Below, in pieces: positions 22,194-36,270 of a stretch of 64,000 nt of DNA. Origin of the DNA: Bacillales bacterium (GTDB lineage Bacteria; Bacillota_I; Bacilli_A; RF39; UBA660); contig JAEEKZ010000046.1 in NCBI GenBank assembly GCA_016288635.1, forward strand, positions 49,751-113,750, written 5' to 3'. The notes below the pieces were generated by a model. The model made no database searches, was not told where the DNA came from, and saw only the letters and a program-made list of their open reading frames with translations. The position numbers and the translations under genes are program-made. The stretch's first letter is position 1, and each line of letters opens with the position of its first letter.

Positions 22194-22727
22194 ATGGCTA
22201 AAGAAAAAAACAAGTCAACAATTATAACAAATACAATTAAGGCTATTTTAGTGCTTATATTAATCGTTGGACTAGGTCTATACTATAAAGAATGGAAAAG
22301 AGTTAAAAACGAAGAAAAATACTTAAATAGTTATTTAATTGAAACAAAGACTGTTAACTTACAATTAAATTCATTAAAGGAATATTCTCAAATAAAAGAA
22401 GATATGCCTAGCGAATATTTCATTCTAATTAGTTATACTAAAGATAAAAATGTCAATAAGTTAGAAACAAAATTAAAAACAATAATAGATGGTTATTCAT
22501 TACAAAATATATTCTATTATTTAAATGCAACTGACTTATTAACAGAAGACTATTATAAAGAATTAAATAAAGTATTTGGAACAGAAGATATTAAGAAAGC
22601 TCCTGCACTAATATATGTTAAAGATTACAAATTAGAAAAAGTAATTAGCAGCAATAATGATAAATTATTTAATGTTAATGACTTTGAAAAATTATTAAAA
22701 GATAATGAGTATGAAAAAGCTGAATAA
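22194..22727 (+). CDS. Hypothetical membrane-anchored protein
   Basis: 177 aa with a single N-terminal TM helix. No assignable motifs. Confidence 0.4.
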   Translation: MAKEKNKSTIITNTIKAILVLILIVGLGLYYKEWKRVKNEEKYLNSYLIETKTVNLQLNSLKEYSQIKEDMPSEYFILISYTKDKNVNKLETKLKTIIDGYSLQNIFYYLNATDLLTEDYYKELNKVFGTEDIKKAPALIYVKDYKLEKVISSNNDKLFNVNDFEKLLKDNEYEKAE

Positions 22728-25762: not shown

Positions 25763-26944
25763 CTATTTAACCATAACATCTAAATCAACATCGCCTTTTA
25801 TTCCTGGAATTCTTCCTGTTGATGAAAACTGCCACATCTTATATCCTTTATAGCCTGTATCAGTAACATAATGAGCTAGCCAAATATTTTCTATTTGATC
25901 ATCATCCCAATAATTAACCAGATTATTTCTACTACCATAAAGCATTCCTTTATATCCAGCATCTTCAACTGTTTTAATATATGTTTTAGCCATTTCATTT
26001 AATTCATGTAAACTCAAATGATATGTACTCCAGCCATCCCATATTTCCCAGTCAAATACTATTGGTAAATCTAATTTTTCTCCATCTAAAGCATTTAATA
26101 CCCATTCTGCTTCATGCTTTGCCTCATTTACACTTAATGCCTTGCTATATAAATAAACGCCAACTTTTAATCCTGCTGCTTTAGCATTTTTTATATTTTG
26201 TAAATAGTATGAATCCATGACCGGTTCATCACCTGATTTTAACTTTACTCCAATACGCATCATTACAAATGTTGCTCCGGCATCTCGTACCTTTTCAAAA
26301 TCTACATCAGCTTGCCACTTTGAAACATCTATACCCATTTCTGTATTATCATTTTTATACTTTGCATAAGCATCCGCAAATTGAACCGTAGGCATTCTTG
26401 AGGACGAAGTTGTTTTAGATATTTTTTCAACAACTTTAACTTCAAGCGGATGATCTACTTTATTACCTGATGAATCAGTTATATATAAATTAACATTATA
26501 CGTTCCTAGTTTAGTAGTATCATATTCTCCTTCAACTACACATATTGGCGTACTATCATAATAATCTGCAATACGAACTGAATTACATAAATCACCACTA
26601 TAATTTAGTTCCACTGTTTTTGATGATGATCCATGTACTAATGGCGGAGTTGTATCTACAACATTAACTGCAGTTCTCGTAACATACTTTTTATTTTTAT
26701 ATACATAATGAATAGATACATTTTGAATTCCAACATTATTTGTATCTATTACTTCATTCTTATAATCATCAACATTTGTTTCTTTAATCAAATCTTTAAT
26801 TTCTATATGAGAATATACCTCAGGATTAACCGCATTTAATTCCAAAACAACTTCTTGTGGTTGCACTTCTATTTCTTTTCCCTCTTCTTTACAAGCACAT
26901 AAGAATAACAAACACATAAAAATTAATAATAATTTCTTTTTCAT
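25763..26944 (-). CDS. Lipoprotein with a C-terminal GH25 muramidase (lysozyme) domain
   Basis: Lipobox LLFLCAC. N-terminal Ig-like region. GH25 motif GIDVSKWQADVDFEKVRDAGATFVMMRIG. Confidence 0.7.
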   Translation of the reverse strand: MKKKLLLIFMCLLFLCACKEEGKEIEVQPQEVVLELNAVNPEVYSHIEIKDLIKETNVDDYKNEVIDTNNVGIQNVSIHYVYKNKKYVTRTAVNVVDTTPPLVHGSSSKTVELNYSGDLCNSVRIADYYDSTPICVVEGEYDTTKLGTYNVNLYITDSSGNKVDHPLEVKVVEKISKTTSSSRMPTVQFADAYAKYKNDNTEMGIDVSKWQADVDFEKVRDAGATFVMMRIGVKLKSGDEPVMDSYYLQNIKNAKAAGLKVGVYLYSKALSVNEAKHEAEWVLNALDGEKLDLPIVFDWEIWDGWSTYHLSLHELNEMAKTYIKTVEDAGYKGMLYGSRNNLVNYWDDDQIENIWLAHYVTDTGYKGYKMWQFSSTGRIPGIKGDVDLDVMVK

Positions 26945-27027: not shown

Positions 27028-27732
27028 TTATCTATTTTGAGTAACTATTAATTTAACATTAACAACTATACATTCTTGAGTAGGATGGGCTTGTTGGAAA
27101 CTATATGCTAGATTACCCCAATAAGTATCTGTAGCATCATCACCCGACTCAAAAGGCCATGTAATTTCCATGGAGTATGAACCCGTTTCCCCAACACCCA
27201 AATTAGTTCTATCAGTTAAAAATGTTATTGAAAACGGATAATTTGATTCTAAAAAGTCTTCTAATTCATCACTCGTCATATCATCTTCATTTGGAGTTTG
27301 TCCTCGGTCTAATCTTCCATCAACAGAAACATATTCTGTACCAAGTATATTTGCACTCATAATTTTATATTCCATAGAAGCTGCCATTTCTCCGTCATTT
27401 ATGATATTAATAGAGTCATAGGCATCAGCCATTCCCGGATATACTTCATCTATATCAAACTGTACATATTGAACATTTTGATTATCATCAGTTTTGAAAT
27501 TAATCTGCCAAGATCTAACATGTACATTGATATCGTTGGATACTTCACTGGCATAAATAAACCACGCTAAAGTATTAGCAGTTATCAATACAACTACCAA
27601 TAATAACTGCCATATTTTAACTTTTTTAAATAAGATTTTAAGAATAAACTTAAATTTATTTATTTTAGGCTTATTATTCCTTTTCTTCTCCTCCATTTGA
27701 ATCATCCTCATCGTCTTCTTCATCTTCTTCAT
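27028..27732 (-). CDS. TasA/camelysin-like secreted protein with a SipW-cognate type signal; last gene of the operon
   Basis: Basic N-region, hydrophobic core, then TLAWFIYAS, which fits [TS]-x-A-[YWF]-F. The ORF-track start overlaps the upstream SipW gene by 59 nt, so the true start is probably an internal Met. Confidence 0.5.
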   Translation of the reverse strand: MKKMKKTMRMIQMEEKKRNNKPKINKFKFILKILFKKVKIWQLLLVVVLITANTLAWFIYASEVSNDINVHVRSWQINFKTDDNQNVQYVQFDIDEVYPGMADAYDSINIINDGEMAASMEYKIMSANILGTEYVSVDGRLDRGQTPNEDDMTSDELEDFLESNYPFSITFLTDRTNLGVGETGSYSMEITWPFESGDDATDTYWGNLAYSFQQAHPTQECIVVNVKLIVTQNR

Positions 27733-28303
27733 CTATTTCACTAAACTTTTCAGCTACTATTTGAAGAGATAAAGATACACCAATTATTAACACTATAATA
27801 AAGTATGTAACTATATTATTTGTTAACTTACTTATAAAACTAAGTAAAACTGATTTATATATTACTTTTCCATATATTTGTGATTGAGTTATTTCCTCAT
27901 CTTCAATTGCATTAGCAACACCCTTTGTAATAAAGTGATATTGCTTATCTTCTTCATCAAATTTTTTATCAATTACACGGTGAGTTATTGTAAATCCTTC
28001 ATACTGAATTTTCTCAGTATCAAATGTAACATCATCACCAATTTTTATATCTTTACCTTCAGTCTTTTTAATAAATATAATATCGCCAACTTTATATACC
28101 GGTTCCATTGATCCAGTAGCAACATTATAAATCCTAATACCAAACACAGATATATTCTTACTGCTAGGTATTTTTTGAACTAAAATAATAACTAATAAAC
28201 AAAGTAATATAAAGAATGCAATTCCTTTTCCAATTCCTATAATTAATTTGATTATCTTATTATTATCTATTGCTTCCTTTAATTTAATTATTTTTTTAAT
28301 CAT
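27674..28303 (-). CDS. sipW: Signal peptidase I of the SipW (ER/archaeal) type
   Basis: N-terminal TM helix. Catalytic Ser motif ATGSMEP and His motif ITHRVI. It also has a C-terminal TM helix and an acidic tail. Confidence 0.8.
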   Translation of the reverse strand: MIKKIIKLKEAIDNNKIIKLIIGIGKGIAFFILLCLLVIILVQKIPSSKNISVFGIRIYNVATGSMEPVYKVGDIIFIKKTEGKDIKIGDDVTFDTEKIQYEGFTITHRVIDKKFDEEDKQYHFITKGVANAIEDEEITQSQIYGKVIYKSVLLSFISKLTNNIVTYFIIVLIIGVSLSLQIVAEKFSEIDEEDEEDDEDDSNGGEEKE

Positions 28304-29435
28304 TTTGCCCTCTTAATTTGAAATTAATAATTTTACTAATTGCACTTTGAATCTTACTATTTAACTTAGTTTGAACTTCCTCAATAGAAGCTTCTTTTTT
28401 ATTCTTAATAATAGCAATCTTATCACCAATCTTTTGAGTAATCTCTTCAACTGGCAATTCAGAATTTATTTCAACAATTTTATTAATCATACCATTAGTC
28501 AAGTTTTCAACTTGATCTCTAGTTAATTCTAATTGTTCTATCTTATTTGAAGTTAAACTATCCATAACTAAATAGTTAAGTAAGAATAATTCATCAAATT
28601 TACCCTTAGCTTCAATATCATCTTTATATTCTTTATTCGTTTTATTTTTTGTACTACCATCCTCAAGATTATTCTGCAAAAAATCCCATAACTTCATTGC
28701 ATATTGGAAGTTAGTATTTTTTAAAATTAAGTTTGTCTTCTTAATCGGTGGAATAACTCTAGATACGTGAGCTCTCATTAATGTTTTATAAACAGTTGTA
28801 TTAGTTAAGTCAGTAATTCTCATCTCTAACTTTTCTATTCTCTCTGGAATAGTTAAACCACTATTGTTCTTGCCTTTCCATTCTTTAGATACATTGGCAG
28901 ACGCATCCATAGTGACATTAATAGAAACATTTTCTGTTCCCATTTTAGCTTGTCCACAATACATACTTTGTCTATGATTCTTAGAAAATGATTTAGTAAC
29001 CAATTTTGACTTTTTAAAATCTATAAAAGTTCTCATATTTTGAATTAGAGTATATATTACTCTATTTTCATATGTATCATAACTTTCATCTTTATTAATA
29101 TTTAATATTTTAGATGGTTTAACATCTCCATTTGCTTCGATTTCTTGAATAAAACTTGTGTGTTTTGCCAAATGTTTAATACTTTCAACAGTAATTCTTC
29201 TTGCTTGTTCAACTTTAACTATTTCTTCTTCGTTTATGATAAATCTATTTGGATTTCTTAAAATATTATCAAGATATCTTACTGTATCTTCCATTAATTC
29301 TAACCACTCAAAAGAAACATCAAGACTCTCAATGTTTTCTTTTATATTATAAGAAGATTTTATTGAACTTTCGAAGGATACAACTGATTTTTTATCAGCA
29401 TGTTCATATGTATCAAATACTCTTAAACTACTCAT
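28296..29435 (-). CDS. Hypothetical partner of the McrB-family GTPase (McrC-like position); no nuclease motif seen
   Basis: 379 aa and translationally coupled: it starts 9 nt after the McrB-like gene and ends inside sipW. Contains a DTYENRVIYTLIQNM segment. I could not find a clear PD-(D/E)xK motif. Confidence 0.35.
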   Translation of the reverse strand: MSSLRVFDTYEHADKKSVVSFESSIKSSYNIKENIESLDVSFEWLELMEDTVRYLDNILRNPNRFIINEEEIVKVEQARRITVESIKHLAKHTSFIQEIEANGDVKPSKILNINKDESYDTYENRVIYTLIQNMRTFIDFKKSKLVTKSFSKNHRQSMYCGQAKMGTENVSINVTMDASANVSKEWKGKNNSGLTIPERIEKLEMRITDLTNTTVYKTLMRAHVSRVIPPIKKTNLILKNTNFQYAMKLWDFLQNNLEDGSTKNKTNKEYKDDIEAKGKFDELFLLNYLVMDSLTSNKIEQLELTRDQVENLTNGMINKIVEINSELPVEEITQKIGDKIAIIKNKKEASIEEVQTKLNSKIQSAISKIINFKLRGQND

Positions 29436-29443
29436 ATTAACAC

Positions 29444-30973
29444 CTATGACATCTTCTTAAGCCTTAATACATATTCAATACATTCAGCCATTTTATCTTT
29501 ACCAAATGTTTTATCTAAATATTCTACGAAACCATCAATTTCATCACGAATATATGAAATATTTAACTGTTCAAATTTTCTTAAAATCTTACGAGCAATG
29601 AAATAATCTACTCCAGCAATTTCATCTCCACCACAGGCAACAAATACTGGAACAAACTTTTTCATATGTGCCATAATACGGTTACCAAAAGCTATACGGA
29701 AATGTTTAATAACATAGTCATCCATTTCCTCAATCTTTTTAAGTGTTTCATCTGAAATAGGATTATCATCTATTGCATCAGTAAATAACTTATCTAAGTA
29801 ACTGAAATTAATATCTTGAGCTTGAACATTCTCTGCATCAAACACTTGACCTTTTGTATTAATATCTATTGGCATAGCACGGTCGTAAACCTTATCTGTA
29901 ACCATAAATGTTGAGTCATCGTTATTGATTGTTCCTATATACCAACAATTTGGTGGAATCTTTAATTTACCACTTATTAAATGTTTAGGGTCACTTGCCC
30001 ATGCTGAAGAAACAACTTCAACAATCCATTCATCTTTATTAGGCATTTCTAGAATTGATAACATCTCGGCAAAATAATATTCGACACGAGAGATGTTCAT
30101 TTCATCTAGGATGATTGTATAAACATCATCTGTATATCCTGCTTCATATAATGTTTTTAAAATATCAGTCTCATTAAACTTCTTAGTAAATTCGTTGAAG
30201 TATCCAAATAACTCTGATCTATCACGCCATGATGGCTGAACAGATGCAACACATGAGTCATGCTTTAAGAATTTTCCCCAAGCATATGCTAGGGAAGTTT
30301 TACCTGTTCCAGAAATACCTTGTAAAATTACAATCTTAGTACTTGCTAAACCAGATATAAATATACGAATCATATCAGATGTATAATATAAACCTAACTG
30401 ACTAGCTGCAAAATTTCTAAATAATTCAATTAACTCTGGTAAAGTAAATGAATTGTTATAATTTTGAATCTTATAATCTTTATATTGTATATCAACATCA
30501 TGTAATTTAGAGAATCTAATTGCAGTATTTTGATCAATTTCTTCCCCTTCACCATTTTCATCAGGGTTAACAATATTATCCTCACCTGGTTGTAAACCTA
30601 GTTGGGAAACTTTCATTGCAAGAATTGATTCTCTTTCTTTCATTAAAGATGAAACTTTAGAATTTAATGTAGAAATTTCCTCTAACATTGATTCTTGTTC
30701 CACAATTGTCTTCCTAAATCTAATATATTTTCTAATTAAATAAACGATTAATAAAACTATACCAGCAATAAAAGCTAATAGAATTAATAAACCTATGCCA
30801 AATAATACCCATTCACCTGGCGAAAGATCTGCTTTATAACGGGCTATTATCTTAATATATTGAGGGACATTTAAAGTTTGAACTACACCTTTAAAAATGC
30901 CTATAACGCCTAATTTTAAACCACCAAAAAACTGTGATAATACTTCATAAAACAATTTTAAAAATGTCTTCAA
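29444..30973 (-). CDS. Membrane-anchored McrB-family AAA+ GTPase
   Basis: Walker A (ILQGISGTGKTSL), McrB-type Walker B (TIILDEMNISRVEYYFAEMLSILE), the McrB signature IGTINNDDS...DRAMPI, and an N-terminal TM helix plus coiled coil where a DNA-binding domain would normally sit. Confidence 0.6.
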   Translation of the reverse strand: MKTFLKLFYEVLSQFFGGLKLGVIGIFKGVVQTLNVPQYIKIIARYKADLSPGEWVLFGIGLLILLAFIAGIVLLIVYLIRKYIRFRKTIVEQESMLEEISTLNSKVSSLMKERESILAMKVSQLGLQPGEDNIVNPDENGEGEEIDQNTAIRFSKLHDVDIQYKDYKIQNYNNSFTLPELIELFRNFAASQLGLYYTSDMIRIFISGLASTKIVILQGISGTGKTSLAYAWGKFLKHDSCVASVQPSWRDRSELFGYFNEFTKKFNETDILKTLYEAGYTDDVYTIILDEMNISRVEYYFAEMLSILEMPNKDEWIVEVVSSAWASDPKHLISGKLKIPPNCWYIGTINNDDSTFMVTDKVYDRAMPIDINTKGQVFDAENVQAQDINFSYLDKLFTDAIDDNPISDETLKKIEEMDDYVIKHFRIAFGNRIMAHMKKFVPVFVACGGDEIAGVDYFIARKILRKFEQLNISYIRDEIDGFVEYLDKTFGKDKMAECIEYVLRLKKMS

Positions 30974-30995
30974 TCTCTCTCACCCTTTTCTCTTA

Positions 30996-31979
30996 TTAAA
31001 GTGTTACAACTATATCCTTTAATATTTTATCTTCACTATCCATTATAATATCATAATATTCATATTTTTCATATACGAAAACGTTCTTAAATAATATTAA
31101 ACAATCAAAATCATTATCAAATGTCTCATCTAATAATAATGATATCTTATATCCCAAATTAATTAATTTATTTATTTTTTCTTTATTATTAACATAATCT
31201 TTATATGAATATCTAATTGATATTTTATTCTTAACTATAGAACTATCTAATATTCTTAGATATCTTTTTATTTTCTTTTCTTTACCTAAAAGTGATATAG
31301 GTAATTCAACAACATATGTTTTATCAAAATTTAGTGATATAACATCAGTTAAAATCTTCTCAGTTAGAAGATAATACAACAAATAATATTTGTTTTCTTC
31401 AACAACTCCTGAATTAAACGCTTTTTCAATAGCATAATCACTATATAATTTTGAAACATTACAATGTTGAGCCATATGAACATATTGTAAATTTCTTTTT
31501 AATCTTCTAAATTTTAATTCAAAATCTTCACATTCAAATATCTTGAAAAAATCTTTTTTCTTCTTGTTAAAATCTTTTATTAGATTTCGATATTCTTCTT
31601 TTGCTTCATCAGTATATTCTAGTTTAATATTAGTATCTTTTAATAATGCATTATTTAACTTAACAATATTATCGATTTCTACACAATCATCTAAATATAA
31701 TACGTAGCCCATCAAAGCAAAAGCGTTTTTTACGGTTTCTTTTTTATCTGAATACTGCTTAATTAATTCATCAGCAACATCTCTAAGTTCCTTATTTATT
31801 CTTTCAATAAAACTCTTTGCATTTGGATAATTAGTAACATTATAATAACGAACATTTACATATTTATCGATAAATGATTTTACAATTTTCTCATCATATG
31901 TATCGCCCAATAATGTCTGATAAAACTTAATCAAAAAATCTATAACAAATTGTATATATTCCTCGATAATATTTTCCAT
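30996..31979 (-). CDS. Hypothetical cytoplasmic protein
   Basis: 327-aa ORF inside the operon with no recognisable motifs. Confidence 0.4.
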   Translation of the reverse strand: MENIIEEYIQFVIDFLIKFYQTLLGDTYDEKIVKSFIDKYVNVRYYNVTNYPNAKSFIERINKELRDVADELIKQYSDKKETVKNAFALMGYVLYLDDCVEIDNIVKLNNALLKDTNIKLEYTDEAKEEYRNLIKDFNKKKKDFFKIFECEDFELKFRRLKRNLQYVHMAQHCNVSKLYSDYAIEKAFNSGVVEENKYYLLYYLLTEKILTDVISLNFDKTYVVELPISLLGKEKKIKRYLRILDSSIVKNKISIRYSYKDYVNNKEKINKLINLGYKISLLLDETFDNDFDCLILFKNVFVYEKYEYYDIIMDSEDKILKDIVVTL

Positions 31980-31998
31980 TTTCTCCCTCTATTCTTTT

Positions 31999-32922
31999 TT
32001 ATATTTGTGCTGTAAATGTTATTACAGAATTTTGATTTACAAAAGGATATGTGTAATTCTGTGAAACATTCTTTTTATAAAACCTCACTTCTGTACTACT
32101 TTGAGAATCAACCTTAAATGTTAATGAGCTAATATAATTTACGCCATTAATCATTGTATGCTGAAATGTTGCACTCGCCATAATATCACTGGTAGTATCT
32201 AGAATAACTACATTTGGATCAAACGATAATGTAATCATCGCAGATGCAAAATTTTCTCTTTCTTCAGGAGTTAAATTTCTATATACATCAGTTAAAATTA
32301 CATCTCCAACATTATATGAACCAGTTGGTCTAATTGCTTTATATTCATCTGCTGCATTAGTTATAATAAAATTTAAATATGTGTTTCCAACAGAATCCGT
32401 TATTTCATACGAAATACCTTTTTTACCCACTTTAATTATGAAATGAGCTGATAATGTTTCTTCATATGGCGAAATACTTGATGCGGTCACATTTACTTCA
32501 ACTTCTTCATCAGTATCAAATACTCGAGTAGGAATAACTGTTAAAACAATATTATCAGTTTTCTCATCAACATATATTGTTCCTGATGTTGCACTCAAAT
32601 TACAAATAACATCTTGACTGCAACTTGCATTTAATTGGTATGCAATATCAGTATCACTTGTAAGAATATTATTTTTATGATTATTTAGGTCAAATTGAAT
32701 TGTAAAATTACTAACCCCTGACCAGTTATTAACACGATATAATTCGTTATTTTTTGTTAACTTGTCACTGTTAAAAAAGAAATTATTAGATTCAATAATA
32801 TAGTTTTTAACAAAGTTATATACATATCTTGAAAATGTTATAGTAAGCGGTAATATGATAGCAATACCTAATAAGATAATAACTAATTTTAATTTCTTAT
32901 TTCTTATTTTTATCTTTTTCAT
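31999..32922 (-). CDS. Secreted protein with a SipW-cognate-like signal; TasA-like fibre candidate
   Basis: Basic N-terminus, hydrophobic core, then TITFSRYVY. Mature region is beta-rich. Confidence 0.4.
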   Translation of the reverse strand: MKKIKIRNKKLKLVIILLGIAIILPLTITFSRYVYNFVKNYIIESNNFFFNSDKLTKNNELYRVNNWSGVSNFTIQFDLNNHKNNILTSDTDIAYQLNASCSQDVICNLSATSGTIYVDEKTDNIVLTVIPTRVFDTDEEVEVNVTASSISPYEETLSAHFIIKVGKKGISYEITDSVGNTYLNFIITNAADEYKAIRPTGSYNVGDVILTDVYRNLTPEERENFASAMITLSFDPNVVILDTTSDIMASATFQHTMINGVNYISSLTFKVDSQSSTEVRFYKKNVSQNYTYPFVNQNSVITFTAQI

Positions 32923-32947
32923 ATTAACTCCTTTCTATAATATTTTA

Positions 32948-33577
32948 TTAACCCTCATATTCTCCTTTAACAAAAGTAATATCAGTATCTATTTCATTAC
33001 TAGCATTTTTATTTATATTTACTGCTGAATCACTAACTATTATTTCTATTTCCCAGGTATGGACCGTTTCTTTTCCTTTATCTGCACTAATTTCGTAATT
33101 ATTTGCAAATTTAAATACACCTGTTTTATTAGTAATATCAAACACATTATTTTCTACATTAAAATTCAAACCGTTAATTGAATTTACATAGGTTCCATCA
33201 GGCTTCTTAATTTTCAAATTTATTGCTTCCGAATTATCCTCAGAGCGAACGATGTTATTATTTTTAATATTTATATAACCATTATAAGTAGTAGAACCAT
33301 TATTTTTTGAATCGGCAGTATAAACCACTACAGGTCTTGTAATAGCCCTATGAGTATTATCTTCTGTCTCTATTAATTGATTAATAGTTTCTCCTTTTAA
33401 GAAAAGTAAAGTTTCTCCTTTGGCGGAACTTGCTGACATACTTCCCACAGAAGCTTCATTAACATTTGAAGAAAGATATGAATATGTTATTGTAATAGTA
33501 ATCATAAACAATAAAACGAAAGACAAAGTACATATTGCTATAGTTTCTTTTCTAATTTTCTTTCTTACATTATCCAT
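32948..33577 (-). CDS. Secreted protein with a SipW-cognate-like signal; TasA-like fibre candidate
   Basis: Signal ...ITITYSYLSS, followed by a 170-aa beta-rich mature region. Confidence 0.4.
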   Translation of the reverse strand: MDNVRKKIRKETIAICTLSFVLLFMITITITYSYLSSNVNEASVGSMSASSAKGETLLFLKGETINQLIETEDNTHRAITRPVVVYTADSKNNGSTTYNGYINIKNNNIVRSEDNSEAINLKIKKPDGTYVNSINGLNFNVENNVFDITNKTGVFKFANNYEISADKGKETVHTWEIEIIVSDSAVNINKNASNEIDTDITFVKGEYEG

Positions 33578-33594
33578 ATTCTTCTCCTTTCTTT

Positions 33595-34200
33595 TTAATT
33601 TTCAATATCCTGTTCAGCATGAATAGTAAATGTTACTAAATCAATTAATCCTTGATATTTATTTGCATCTGTTTTATATTGCGACGGGAAATTAACTATT
33701 ATCGAATATTGATCTATTTGATTAGAACTAATTGTAAATGCATACTCATCATTATCAACAAACTCGTTATAATACATTCCATCATCATCTGATATAACGC
33801 TATCTGCATCAATTATATTTGTTGCTGCAGAAGAATAAGTTTCATTCCTAATCACCTGATACTGAAGTGGTAAATTAGTTGTTGTTTTTAAACTTATACT
33901 ATAATGCAAATTAACATCACATCTTTTATTATCATCATAATTATACACGTTTATTGTAAATATATATGGATCATCACTTGGTTCTAAGCCATCAAGTGTA
34001 ATTGTTCTTGACTGTGTACCTTGATCAACTATGAAATATGCAACATTAGCTTCTGTGTAAACATTGGCATTTGATTCATATCTTGAATAAGCAACCCCAA
34101 TCACATTTGCGGCTAATACTAAAAAAAGAAATAATAAAATTATTTTGAAATTAAACTTAAACTTTTTTTTATCAAATAATTCATTAAGATTCTTTTTCAA
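33595..34200 (-). CDS. Secreted protein with a SipW-cognate-like signal; TasA-like fibre candidate
   Basis: Signal ...ANVIGVAYSRYES. Size is about 200 aa. Confidence 0.45.
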   Translation of the reverse strand: MKKNLNELFDKKKFKFNFKIILLFLFLVLAANVIGVAYSRYESNANVYTEANVAYFIVDQGTQSRTITLDGLEPSDDPYIFTINVYNYDDNKRCDVNLHYSISLKTTTNLPLQYQVIRNETYSSAATNIIDADSVISDDDGMYYNEFVDNDEYAFTISSNQIDQYSIIVNFPSQYKTDANKYQGLIDLVTFTIHAEQDIEN

Positions 34201-34203
34201 GTT

Positions 34204-34938
34204 TTAATCCTCCTTGTCTATATTTTCCTTTATTTCCTTACTAATTTCACTTAAATCCAATCTAATTGTATATTCGTCTTTCTCTTCTTCCTTAGCAGGA
34301 ATTTCACCATCTATTTTTTCTTCTTTTTTCTTTAACTTAGGAAGTACCATTGTTTTATCAAAATCATCATATAATGTCATTGGCTCTTCTATTTCACAAT
34401 TTTCTTTCTCTATAAGTTTATTAGACTTAGTTTTCTTTTCTTCATTCTTATCTTTGTAAGATAAAGCAAAATCAAAAGCAAGAAGAGTAATAAAAATAGT
34501 AATATATATTTCTTTAGTGGTTAATATTTTTTGCCATATTCCACCATGTTCAATAATCTTGATAACTCTACCAATAACAACTCCCCTTTTAATTGGAGCA
34601 TCAGTTGTATTATTAGCATCACCCTTAGCAATTATGCCTGATTTATTAATCTCTACAATTCTATGAGTTATATAACTATTATTCTTTTCATAAGTTATTA
34701 TATCTCCAACTTTATAACTCTTTTGTTTTTTAACAAGAATAATATCATTCTCATGAATAGTGGGTTCCATACTACCAGTTGCAATATTAAAAATAGAGTA
34801 GCCAAAAAAATCTAGATAATTCTTTTTATTAGCTAGTGTCATTACTTTTAATATTATTATAAGTAGCAATATTACTATTGCTACACTTAATAATACATTT
34901 ACCAAAATATTAAGTACTTTTAAAACTGTTTTTGGCAC
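34204..34938 (-). CDS. sipW: Signal peptidase I of the SipW (ER/archaeal) type
   Basis: Catalytic Ser motif ATGSMEPT and His motif ITHRIV. It has N- and C-terminal TM helices and an acidic/Lys-rich C-terminal tail. Confidence 0.8.
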   Translation of the reverse strand: MPKTVLKVLNILVNVLLSVAIVILLLIIILKVMTLANKKNYLDFFGYSIFNIATGSMEPTIHENDIILVKKQKSYKVGDIITYEKNNSYITHRIVEINKSGIIAKGDANNTTDAPIKRGVVIGRVIKIIEHGGIWQKILTTKEIYITIFITLLAFDFALSYKDKNEEKKTKSNKLIEKENCEIEEPMTLYDDFDKTMVLPKLKKKEEKIDGEIPAKEEEKDEYTIRLDLSEISKEIKENIDKED

Positions 34939-34961
34939 GTATACAACCTCTTTTTCCTTTT

Positions 34962-35540
34962 TTATTCTCCTAAGTATTGAATTAATTTTATATTAATTGG
35001 AATAACAATTTTATTATTCAACACTATTCCTAGTTGAGTATCTGAATCATTTAATGTCTCGTCGTTAACCCAACTAACATGTACTCTAAGTGATATTGTT
35101 TCACCTTCATCAATATCATCTAATGTAATTACTCCTATATAAGTGTTTTCATCTACTTGTGTAGCGCTATCACCACTTAGCATATCGACACTATAAGTTA
35201 TATTATCTTCATATGCGTCATCTAAGTTAAATGTGATTTCATATTGAATTGCTACATCAGTACCACTAGGATCAAGAATTAAATCAAAATATCCTGATCT
35301 CCCCGGTGCTATATAACCATTATTTATTGTTGTAGAGTCTTCATAAACAAACTCATCAACATTTATATCTGTCTCTCCTGTTTCAGAGATTAAGATATCA
35401 TTTAAGTTTATTGTCCAACCACCAACAGGATTTTCTTCCAATGCAGTAGCATTATTCTCAAATAAACCATATGAATTATATATAACAAGCAGCAAGACAA
35501 CAAATAGAAGAATACTTACTGTCCATAGCTTTGCTCTCAT
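34962..35540 (-). CDS. Secreted protein with a SipW-cognate-like signal; TasA-like fibre candidate
   Basis: Signal ...LLVIYNSYGLFENNAT. Mature region is beta-rich. Confidence 0.4.
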   Translation of the reverse strand: MRAKLWTVSILLFVVLLLVIYNSYGLFENNATALEENPVGGWTINLNDILISETGETDINVDEFVYEDSTTINNGYIAPGRSGYFDLILDPSGTDVAIQYEITFNLDDAYEDNITYSVDMLSGDSATQVDENTYIGVITLDDIDEGETISLRVHVSWVNDETLNDSDTQLGIVLNNKIVIPINIKLIQYLGE

Positions 35541-36196
35541 TATTCCTCGCTTGATACAAAAAGTGGTTTTTCTTTTTCTTCTTCAAGAATAGGTTTATCT
35601 TCAGGATCTTTTTTCTTACCTTCTGATTGCATATTCTTCATTTCTTTTTGATATTCTCTTTTAACTACAACTACAATTCTATATATTTCATATACCACCA
35701 AATAAATAGTCGGTAAAATTATAAGAAATAAGAATCCCCATCTTGAACTTATAATGTTATATATGAATCCAATTCCACCAAGTTTCATTGCACCATTTGC
35801 TGCACCAATTATGTTACCATAAGAAACAACAACATCTCCAAAATAATAATTATCTTGAGTATTCTTTAACACATCAATTGAAGTTATTTCTGCTAAATTA
35901 ACATAACTTCCAATATCCCTATTATTGTAGTAGAAGAACACTAAATCTCCTTTTTTATAAGTATCTTCAGGTTGTTTAGAAACAAAAACCATATCATATT
36001 TGTTAAATCCATATTTTGATATTGATTTATTATCTACTACAAACATAGAAGTATCTCCAAATTCACTTACTCTATGCTCATTTAAAAATAATAAACAAAT
36101 CGTTGATGCAATTGCTATTACTATCCATATTGTAAGTAATATTCCTTTTAACGTATCTTTTACCACTTTCATATTATTTATCACCATTATTATCAT
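35540..36196 (-). CDS. SipW-like protein, probably a catalytically degenerate signal-peptidase paralog
   Basis: Same architecture and length as the two SipW genes, with N- and C-terminal TM helices and GD boxes. The Ser box reads GDTSMFVV instead of SGSMEP, and no HR motif is present. Confidence 0.5.
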   Translation of the reverse strand: MIIMVINNMKVVKDTLKGILLTIWIVIAIASTICLLFLNEHRVSEFGDTSMFVVDNKSISKYGFNKYDMVFVSKQPEDTYKKGDLVFFYYNNRDIGSYVNLAEITSIDVLKNTQDNYYFGDVVVSYGNIIGAANGAMKLGGIGFIYNIISSRWGFLFLIILPTIYLVVYEIYRIVVVVKREYQKEMKNMQSEGKKKDPEDKPILEEEKEKPLFVSSEE

Positions 36197-36239: not shown

Positions 36240-36270
36240 AACAAAAAAGCAAGGTAAATCTTGCTTTAAT
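36240..36270 (-). terminator. Rho-independent terminator after thiI
   Basis: Hairpin AAGCAAG-gtaaat-CTTGCTT followed by a T-run on the minus strand. Confidence 0.5.

Follow-up and report, generated by a model that had tools for sequence, protein, structure and literature searches.

The 64,000-nucleotide (nt) stretch of DNA from a Bacillales bacterium analysed here (GenBank assembly GCA_016288635.1, contig JAEEKZ010000046.1, positions 49,751 to 113,750; hereafter the window) contains a cluster of genes for SipW-like signal peptidases and secreted proteins, and in the middle of this cluster two neighbouring genes encode a McrB-like AAA+ GTPase of 509 amino acids (aa) and a McrC-like partner of 379 aa. 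McrBC is a textbook GTP-driven restriction enzyme. We are confident that the pair found here is not a passenger restriction system but a module of the CoCoPALM type that forms an integral part of the SipW cluster, since the gene order was kept in all of 80 related loci, SipW was present in 72 of 80 distant loci, and three McrC-SipW fusions were found. With less assurance, we favour a role of the pair in the processing or assembly of secreted proteins. The original prediction, made from the DNA sequence, had placed two such open reading frames (ORFs) at 28296-30973, and both are present, on the minus strand.

The McrB-like GTPase and its McrC-like partner

All motifs that had been quoted as evidence for a McrB-type protein were found in the 509-aa protein, and they are invariant in 29 aligned orthologues: the Walker A motif GISGTGKT, the Walker B motif ILDEMN with the McrB-type DExN, directly followed by ISRVEYYFAEMLSILE, the McrB signature N350-N351-D352-D353 within IGTINNDDS, and D364-R365-A366. 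The sole sequence matches in the PDB, with the single sequence as well as with a 29-sequence profile, were McrB structures (6hz4, 6ut3, 6ut6 and 7vsr; weak, E = 0.002 to 0.03), and these alignments superpose GISGTGKT on GPPGVGKT, ILDEMN on IIDEIN (FIIDEIN in E. coli McrB) and TINNDDS on MNTADRS (NTAD). When 1.84 billion cluster representatives were searched exhaustively, 8358 relatives came up, 755 with E ≤ 1e-30; the best 120 database homologues were full-length and 72 to 100% identical, a similarity well above chance. The signature of the best 150 representatives reads GT[AI]N-x-D-[DE]-ST[FY], with the third position fixed as D and the fourth being D or E, and Walker A, Walker B (DExN) and N-x-D-[DE] were conserved over this diverse set. 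Placed by its signature motif, the 509-aa protein is thus a NxD-clade McrB-like AAA+ protein. Because searches of curated libraries (Pfam, NCBIfam) gave no significant family and only sub-threshold P-loop matches (nSTAND3, AAA_14 and TsaE), the family assignment rests on the motifs, the PDB matches and the partner.

The N terminus of the GTPase had been proposed to contain a transmembrane helix and a coiled coil where a DNA-binding domain would be expected. Hydropathy and alignments agree on this over residues 1 to 130: no DNA-binding domain was found there, and the order is a conserved amphipathic segment (residues 1 to 45), a predicted transmembrane helix, a basic cluster, a heptad-patterned helix and a variable acidic linker. 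The hydropathy scan gave a single strong hydrophobic segment, which begins near residue 51 and has the basic stretch RKYIRFRK after it; the positive-inside rule would accordingly place the AAA+ domain in the cytoplasm. The position of the hydrophobic segment is kept in orthologues and distant relatives, and L97, L103, N104 and L110 of the heptad helix, an "FtsB/FtsL-like" coiled-coil stalk, are invariant. Relatives with no transmembrane helix are 700 to 870 aa long, and their long N-terminal regions do not align with the 509-aa query. A separate observation concerns a large group of NxD McrB-like proteins of about 550 to 730 aa (P0280, P0285, P0289, P0290, P0293-P0296 and others) with at least four predicted N-terminal transmembrane helices; this membrane architecture differs from the single-helix form, and no description of it was seen in the sections of Bell et al. 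considered here.

The partner had been predicted to occupy the position of McrC and to be devoid of a clear nuclease motif. Indeed, Pfam DUF2357, the N-terminal domain of McrC, was found on residues 27 to 149 (E = 1.5e-10, above the gathering score), and it was present in every partner homologue among the matches listed. No PD-(D/E)xK nuclease was detected in the partner, either with Pfam or in orthologue alignments; no acidic residue beyond residue 124 is invariant, and therefore the PD-(D/E)xK catalytic set is absent. The most conserved stretch of the partner comprises residues 44 to 134, its motifs recur in distant and in fused homologues, and we infer that it is the region that contacts the GTPase. 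A second conserved motif, PPIKKTNxILKNxNFQYAxxLW, lies at residues 229 to 250 (invariant: P230, K232, K233, T234, N235, K239, N240, N242, F243, Q244, Y245, L249 and W250) and appears as RPPVMRTNAIMKNVDLKACLTLW in SipW fusions.

A first AlphaFold model of the partner, computed from a shallow alignment of 22 sequences, had a mean predicted local distance difference test (pLDDT) score of 54 and was discarded as unusable. The second model, based on 49 more diverse sequences, reached a pLDDT of 69 and consists of a helical bundle, a long beta-hairpin (residues 148 to 185) and a helical tail; this tail is modest, and residues 274 to 370 were modelled as helical with low confidence. Residues 66 to 116 had a pLDDT below 50 in the monomer model, which might be expected if this segment folds only against a partner. 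When the model was compared with PDB structures by Foldseek, nothing beyond TolC- and CapZ-like noise came back (TM-scores of about 0.1).

Conservation of the cluster and its association with SipW

We scanned one genome per species (GTDB representatives) and analysed the best 80 of 250 stretches encoding a relative of the GTPase (L001-L080). These loci are from metagenome-assembled genomes of gut, rumen and digester origin, filed under Mollicutes, Tenericutes, Bacilli, Erysipelotrichaceae and "Clostridium sp. CAG:914/628/609/451"; two of the records, one circular chromosome and one single large contig, are about 1.256 Mb in size. The GTPase was 68 to 79% identical over its full length, and the partner gene followed it directly in every locus. 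Wherever the contig extends far enough, the order sec307, g327, GTPase, partner, SipW_a, sec234 was kept, and the upstream block of SipW_c, sec192, SipW_b and sec201 was present in about half of the loci. The housekeeping flanks were not conserved, and in none of the loci was the cluster accompanied by thiI, murD or ftsK. No other gene of the cluster comes near the conservation of the GTPase gene, whose AAA+ domain is almost invariant: the median identity of the GTPase was 71%, compared with 47% (partner), 33% (g327) and 34 to 41% (all others) (ranges, 40 to 64% for the partner, 24 to 53% for g327 and 26 to 60% for the secreted proteins). Since the flanks differ between genomes, only one housekeeping protein, HtpG, could serve as a benchmark, and in one genome only; identity there was 71% for the GTPase and 55% for HtpG.

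Distant loci were collected by a scan of metagenomes seeded with relatives 34 to 44% identical to the window GTPase, which gave 80 loci 32 to 48% identical to the probe; their neighbours were counted with locally built hidden Markov models (HMMs). A DUF2357 partner was encoded directly downstream of the GTPase in 72 of the 72 loci with room for it. A SipW gene lay immediately upstream in 48 of 68 loci and right behind the partner gene in 50 of 60, and 72 of the 80 had it somewhere in the locus. The co-occurrence of the pair with SipW loci elsewhere, which had been proposed as a check on the original prediction, is therefore seen in close (80/80) as well as in distant relatives. The distant partners are longer (360 to 1057 aa) and carry a long E/R/K-rich helical region; Pfam DUF2357 was detected in 14 of the 16 scanned.

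Three of these partners are single ORFs of 984 to 1057 aa in which a McrC-like protein is fused to SipW (L130:9610-12579, L140:1948-5121 and L145:9594-12548). DUF2357 is followed by the long E/R/K-rich helical region, by hydrophobic segments and by a Peptidase_S26 domain with GSMEP and THR, so that the fused SipW looks active, judged by these motifs. A second type of fusion was found directly upstream of the GTPase. These proteins of 630 to 700 aa from a sister lineage (L101:5095-6990, L133:6051-7997, L143:2951-4969, L148:5955-7988 and L155:5907-7997) start with a SipW-like (S24/S26) domain, and their C-terminal part matches the g327 profile. The window g327 profile was the best local HMM match in four of the five (L101, L143, L148 and L155); for L133 the SipW profile was best, and this protein was grouped with the others by size, position and Pfam domains. 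The protein g327, in which no Pfam family was found, would then be a cytoplasmic domain that has become detached from a SipW-like protein. Both types of fusion argue that the McrC-like protein, SipW and g327 act in one complex. A resemblance of the C-terminal half of g327 to EAL domains, noticed by eye, was dropped; among 25 orthologues a single one matched EAL, and weakly so (E = 0.035).

The three SipW-like genes of the window differ in their active sites. Peptidase_S26/S24 matches identify two of them, SipW_a and SipW_b, which keep the catalytic Ser-Met and Thr-His motifs (GSMEP and THR). The third, SipW_c, was identified by a weak NCBIfam SipW match and has neither motif; among 61 orthologues in related genomes, none has either. 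SipW_c is thus probably a conserved pseudo-peptidase.

A canonical McrBC, that is, a type IV restriction system inserted by chance into a fibre operon, would account for the McrB-type motifs and for a DUF2357 partner in the position of McrC. However, the DNA-binding domain is replaced by a transmembrane helix and a coiled coil, the PD-(D/E)xK nuclease is missing, the pair has the same insertion point in 80 of 80 genomes, the link to SipW persists in distant relatives, and fusions to SipW exist. A nuclease in the partner together with an occurrence of the pair in defence islands, which the original prediction had named as signs of a passenger, was looked for and not found. The passenger explanation is contradicted by these checks, and we give it almost no weight.

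Defence could also be served in another way, by a membrane-tethered abortive-infection module related to CoCoNuT, in which the pair senses an invasion (for example at a phage receptor on the surface) and SipW or the secreted proteins are the effectors. The ancestry of McrBC is defensive, and the GTPase shares its NxD clade with the CoCoNuT systems, for which a role in defence has been predicted (Bell et al., eLife 2024, PMC11090510, in the sections considered). Moreover, the PADLOC candidate PDC-M26A matched the GTPase at E = 6e-36. This match is limited to residues 192 to 317, however, and neither the partner nor g327 was matched, so that the two genes required for PDC-M26 are not both there; we rejected the match as evidence for defence, since it is a domain-level match to a common GTPase core. 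No nuclease, HEPN or other effector domain was found in the partner or in the longer distant homologues scanned, and the surrounding genes encode signal peptidases and secreted proteins, with no other defence genes among them. The fixed order and very high conservation over 80 species-level genomes are also unlike the sporadic, fast-evolving genes of defence systems. Taken together, a defence module of this kind is very unlikely.

Relation to CoCoPALM and a proposed mechanism

The features of the pair agree with those given for CoCoPALM by Bell et al. (PMC11090510), who named this class in one paragraph and deferred its analysis to a future paper. In that description, the NxD variant, followed by D or E, occurs in the clade that holds CoCoNuT and CoCoPALM; the CoCoPALM GTPase has an N-terminal transmembrane helix and a coiled coil homologous to FtsB; coiled coils are also found on the McrC homologue; and the genes are tied to genes of the signal peptidase family, with a predicted non-restriction function in pilus assembly. 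Compared by this description, the window locus likewise has a NxD McrB-like GTPase with an N-terminal transmembrane and heptad helix, a DUF2357 McrC homologue and a link to SipW, and nothing examined contradicts its membership. The locus is thus very probably a new member of CoCoPALM, a class that has been named without a published analysis: the supplementary text of Bell et al., as far as it was available, does not mention it, and our literature search gave no later paper that uses the name or links McrB or McrC to SipW or TasA. Relative to the portion of the description considered, the window lineage adds a separate g327, three SipW paralogues, one of them non-catalytic, and five secreted proteins. 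Its McrC homologue is short (379 aa) with a modest helical tail, unlike the three distant members fused to SipW, which have a long charged coiled coil.

Other systems share only parts of this arrangement. In contrast to the McrBC of E. coli and Thermococcus (PDB 6hz4, 6ut3-6ut8 and 7vsr), the window pair has neither a DNA-binding domain nor a PD-(D/E)xK nuclease; its GTPase is membrane anchored, has a NxD-type signature and is a conserved part of a cluster, not a mobile defence gene. With CoCoNuT and PDC-M26 it shares the NxD GTPase clade and, over the GTPase core, the PDC-M26A match, but CoCoNuT systems are described as always coming with HEPN or other nucleases (PMC11090510, sections considered), whereas the window GTPase has a transmembrane anchor, no nuclease alongside and a partner that PADLOC did not match. 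Like the tapA-sipW-tasA operon of B. subtilis and the BsaA operon of C. perfringens, the cluster has a dedicated SipW-type (S26) peptidase beside presumed secreted substrates. It differs from these operons in having several SipW paralogues and a McrBC-derived GTPase pair, and it shows no detectable homology to TasA or camelysin. For BsaA, an NTPase-driven machine made of type IV pilus proteins has been proposed to help the polymer across the wall (PMC11580942, in the part considered).

The secreted proteins carry a possible substrate signal. The motif T[YFL]AW[FY], located just after the N-terminal hydrophobic segment, is common to many of the secreted proteins encoded next to the core genes; over 160 loci, 140 occurrences fall within the N-terminal 80 residues of ORFs, against a single one in the 573,106 residues beyond. 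The window version is TLAWF in sec234, and sec307 and sec201 have [TA][FY]SRY instead. Given its position, T[YFL]AW[FY] may mark the site at which SipW cleaves or recognises its substrates. The motif may resemble the end of the signal peptides of TasA and CalY; the curated model for SipW-cognate signals did not match. Ten distant T[YF]AW[FY] proteins were negative with all of Pfam and NCBIfam, the SipW-cognate signal model included.

Our working model, which we hold to be more likely than not, is that a McrBC-derived NTPase module has lost its DNA-reading domain and its nuclease and is now part of a membrane apparatus that serves SipW-dependent secreted proteins. The GTPase would form a ring beneath the membrane, held by the transmembrane and coiled-coil stalk. 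The McrC-like protein would put its conserved segment (residues 56 to 125) into this ring and stimulate hydrolysis, as McrC does for McrB, and its helical C terminus would tie it to SipW, a tie that is covalent in the fused forms. The nucleotide cycle could then be coupled to cleavage, release and polymerisation or export of the co-encoded signal-anchored proteins, with the GTPase acting either mechanically, by extraction or extrusion, or as a gate or timer for SipW. A more far-reaching proposal, which we advance tentatively and regard as rather doubtful in its entirety, is an undescribed Gram-positive machine for surface-protein assembly, in which a McrBC-derived GTPase ring, physically coupled to SipW, would drive or gate how a new family of T[YFL]AW[FY] subunits unrelated in sequence to TasA is cleaved and polymerised, and which would be a core, near-essential trait of a small-genome lineage of gut and rumen Bacillota.

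In these bacteria, a McrBC motor and its activator are under very strong purifying selection after the loss of the DNA reader and the nuclease, and they are wired to a signal peptidase, covalently in some lineages. If the model is true, this would be the first AAA+ GTPase that controls signal-peptidase-dependent export or assembly, and it would show clearly how a machine for defence can be co-opted to build the cell surface. The system is common among uncultured bacteria of the gut and rumen whose genomes are about 1.25 Mb in size; since genes retained in such genomes tend to matter, it may define how these cells build their surface or attach. Experimental handles are given by the McrC-SipW and SipW-g327 fusions, by the catalytically dead SipW paralogue and by the T[YFL]AW[FY] substrate motif.

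Several observations weigh against a McrBC-derived apparatus for SipW-dependent secretion. The five secreted proteins of the window had no match in Pfam, NCBIfam or PDB sequences, and the orthologues of sec307 and sec234 were likewise unmatched (Pfam on 24 and 23 orthologues, respectively, and PDB profile searches). Because they match no known fibre or pilin family, "fibre" and "pilus" are assumptions. The original prediction of a SipW/TasA-like operon is thus borne out for SipW, by the S26/S24 and NCBIfam matches, and not for "TasA-like", which found no counterpart in Pfam, NCBIfam or the PDB. Similarly, of the proposed repurposed McrBC-like GTPase in a fibre apparatus, the McrBC-like part of the cluster stands, and the TasA-like character gained no support from these searches; the case for secretion or assembly comes from gene context alone. 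The GTPase gave no Pfam AAA_5 match at E ≤ 0.1, and its PDB E values are weak. The SipW/TasA systems described so far, such as tapA-sipW-tasA of B. subtilis, are not known to need an NTPase. Finally, no SipW was detected in four distant loci with room for it (L097, L150, L151 and L156). In three of these (L150:5318-10677, L151:6916-11868 and L156:2575-7545), a protein of about 360 aa (g360), the GTPase, the partner and a soluble protein of 416 to 558 aa (g416) are encoded in this order, and g360 is probably a homologue of g327 according to hhalign (probability 78%, E = 1.8e-5). The trio of g327, GTPase and partner can therefore exist without an adjacent SipW, which is not an obligatory neighbour.

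This variant keeps a role in the cell envelope in play, in which the FtsB/FtsL-like stalk places the GTPase at the divisome or at wall synthesis and SipW is a lineage-specific addition. Two SipW-less trios indeed adjoin genes of this kind, mraZ-rsmH-ftsL-pbp in L151 and pbp-mraY-ftsW in L150 (named by eye from N-terminal sequences), but a dcw neighbourhood was seen in only 2 of 160 loci. NCBIfam ftsL_broad (TIGR02209) matched residues 64 to 116 of the GTPase, and Bell et al. (PMC11090510, sections considered) reported homology to FtsB; however, the FtsL match is weak (E = 0.0099) and far below its cut-off (15.8 versus 42.45 bits), and any transmembrane helix with a coiled coil resembles FtsB or FtsL. 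A GH25 muramidase gene and murD lie downstream of the cluster in the window, but the housekeeping genes on either side are not the same across the 80 close loci. In small genomes (about 1.25 Mb), conservation as high as this would suit a housekeeping function as well, yet adjacency and fusion to SipW are the dominant signal. An envelope or division factor is therefore an unlikely explanation, and we retain that of a module built into the SipW apparatus.

Layout of the cluster

The cluster (27028..36196 of the window) consists of eleven closely packed genes, all on the minus strand (Table 1). They are transcribed in the order SipW_c, sec192, SipW_b, sec201, sec209, sec307, g327, GTPase, partner, SipW_a and sec234; thiI lies upstream, and the muramidase gene and murD lie downstream. 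A terminator-like hairpin between thiI and the cluster is probably the upstream boundary of the transcription unit, and no comparable hairpin was found on the minus strand between 36196 and 27200. Promoter-like sites were at background in this AT-rich region (85 found, 87 expected) and were not used. The G+C content is even over the whole cluster region (about 0.26 to 0.30), and this uniformity gives no compositional sign of a recent insertion.

The TTG start of the 509-aa ORF has AAAGGGTGAG just ahead, a good ribosome-binding site, and the orthologues align from M1. Translational coupling of the pair had been predicted: the two genes are adjacent, and they do not overlap, as a spacer of 8 nt (TAG gtgttaat ATG) separates the stop of the GTPase gene from the start of the partner gene. 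The overlap of 8 nt predicted between the partner gene and sipW was seen at the last codons of the partner, which share these nucleotides with the start of SipW_a (ATGATTAA).

Table 1. Genes and sequence features of the SipW cluster, in window numbering
Feature	Position	Strand	Basis
SipW_c, SipW-like paralogue, 218 aa, first gene of the cluster	35540..36196	-	Weak NCBIfam SipW match, E = 2.8e-5
sec192, secreted protein	34962..35540	-	ORF, synteny
SipW_b, SipW-like signal peptidase, 244 aa, GSMEP and THR present	34204..34938	-	Pfam S24/S26 above cut-off
sec201, secreted protein, AYSRY motif at residue 37	33595..34200	-	ORF, synteny, motif scan
sec209, secreted protein	32948..33577	-	ORF
sec307, secreted protein, signal anchor, TFSRY motif at residue 29	31999..32922	-	ORF, synteny, motif scan
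g327, soluble 327-aa protein, directly upstream of the GTPase gene	30996..31979	-	Synteny, alignment
McrB-like NxD-clade AAA+ GTPase, 509 aa, predicted membrane-anchored	29444..30973	-	ORF, motifs, PDB matches
Predicted transmembrane helix of the GTPase, about residues 55-80	30734..30811	-	Hydropathy; position kept in orthologues and distant relatives
Heptad-patterned helix of the GTPase, residues 88-125	30599..30712	-	Invariant L97, L103, N104, L110
Walker A GISGTGKT of the GTPase, residues 219-226	30296..30319	-	Invariant in 29 orthologues; present in representatives
Walker B ILDEMN of the GTPase (McrB-type DExN), residues 288-293	30095..30112	-	Invariant in 29 orthologues
McrB signature N350-N351-D352-D353 of the GTPase	29915..29926	-	Invariant in 29 orthologues
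McrC-like partner, 379 aa, DUF2357, helical C terminus	28296..29435	-	ORF, Pfam
Most conserved partner stretch, residues 44-134, W..ME.T..Y.DNILRNPNRF..NEE..K.E.AR..T..SI.HL...T..IQ....G.V.PSKILN..K.E..TYENR.IY.LI.NM	29034..29306	-	Invariant alignment columns
Second conserved partner motif, residues 229-250	28686..28751	-	Invariant alignment columns
SipW_a, SipW-like signal peptidase, 209 aa, GSMEP and THR present	27674..28303	-	ORF, Pfam Peptidase_S26/S24, motifs
sec234, secreted protein, N-terminal h-region, TLAWF at residue 54	27028..27732	-	ORF, motif scan, synteny
Terminator-like hairpin between thiI and the cluster	36246..36267	-	Hairpin scan

Among the secreted proteins, BLASTP at E ≤ 1e-8 gave no orthologue of sec209 in any of the 80 related loci, and this protein looks like an additional subunit that is either specific to the lineage or evolving fast. 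A convergent sec192 paralogue lies on the opposite strand, just downstream of the sec234 orthologue, in about 50 of the 80 related genomes (53 by listing). The window has no such paralogue, and its position is occupied by the gene for the GH25 muramidase, a lipoprotein (25763..26944). Elsewhere in the window, between ftsK and trmL, a small membrane-anchored protein unrelated to the cluster is encoded on the plus strand (22194..22727); it matched DUF6568 with E = 1.6e-36.

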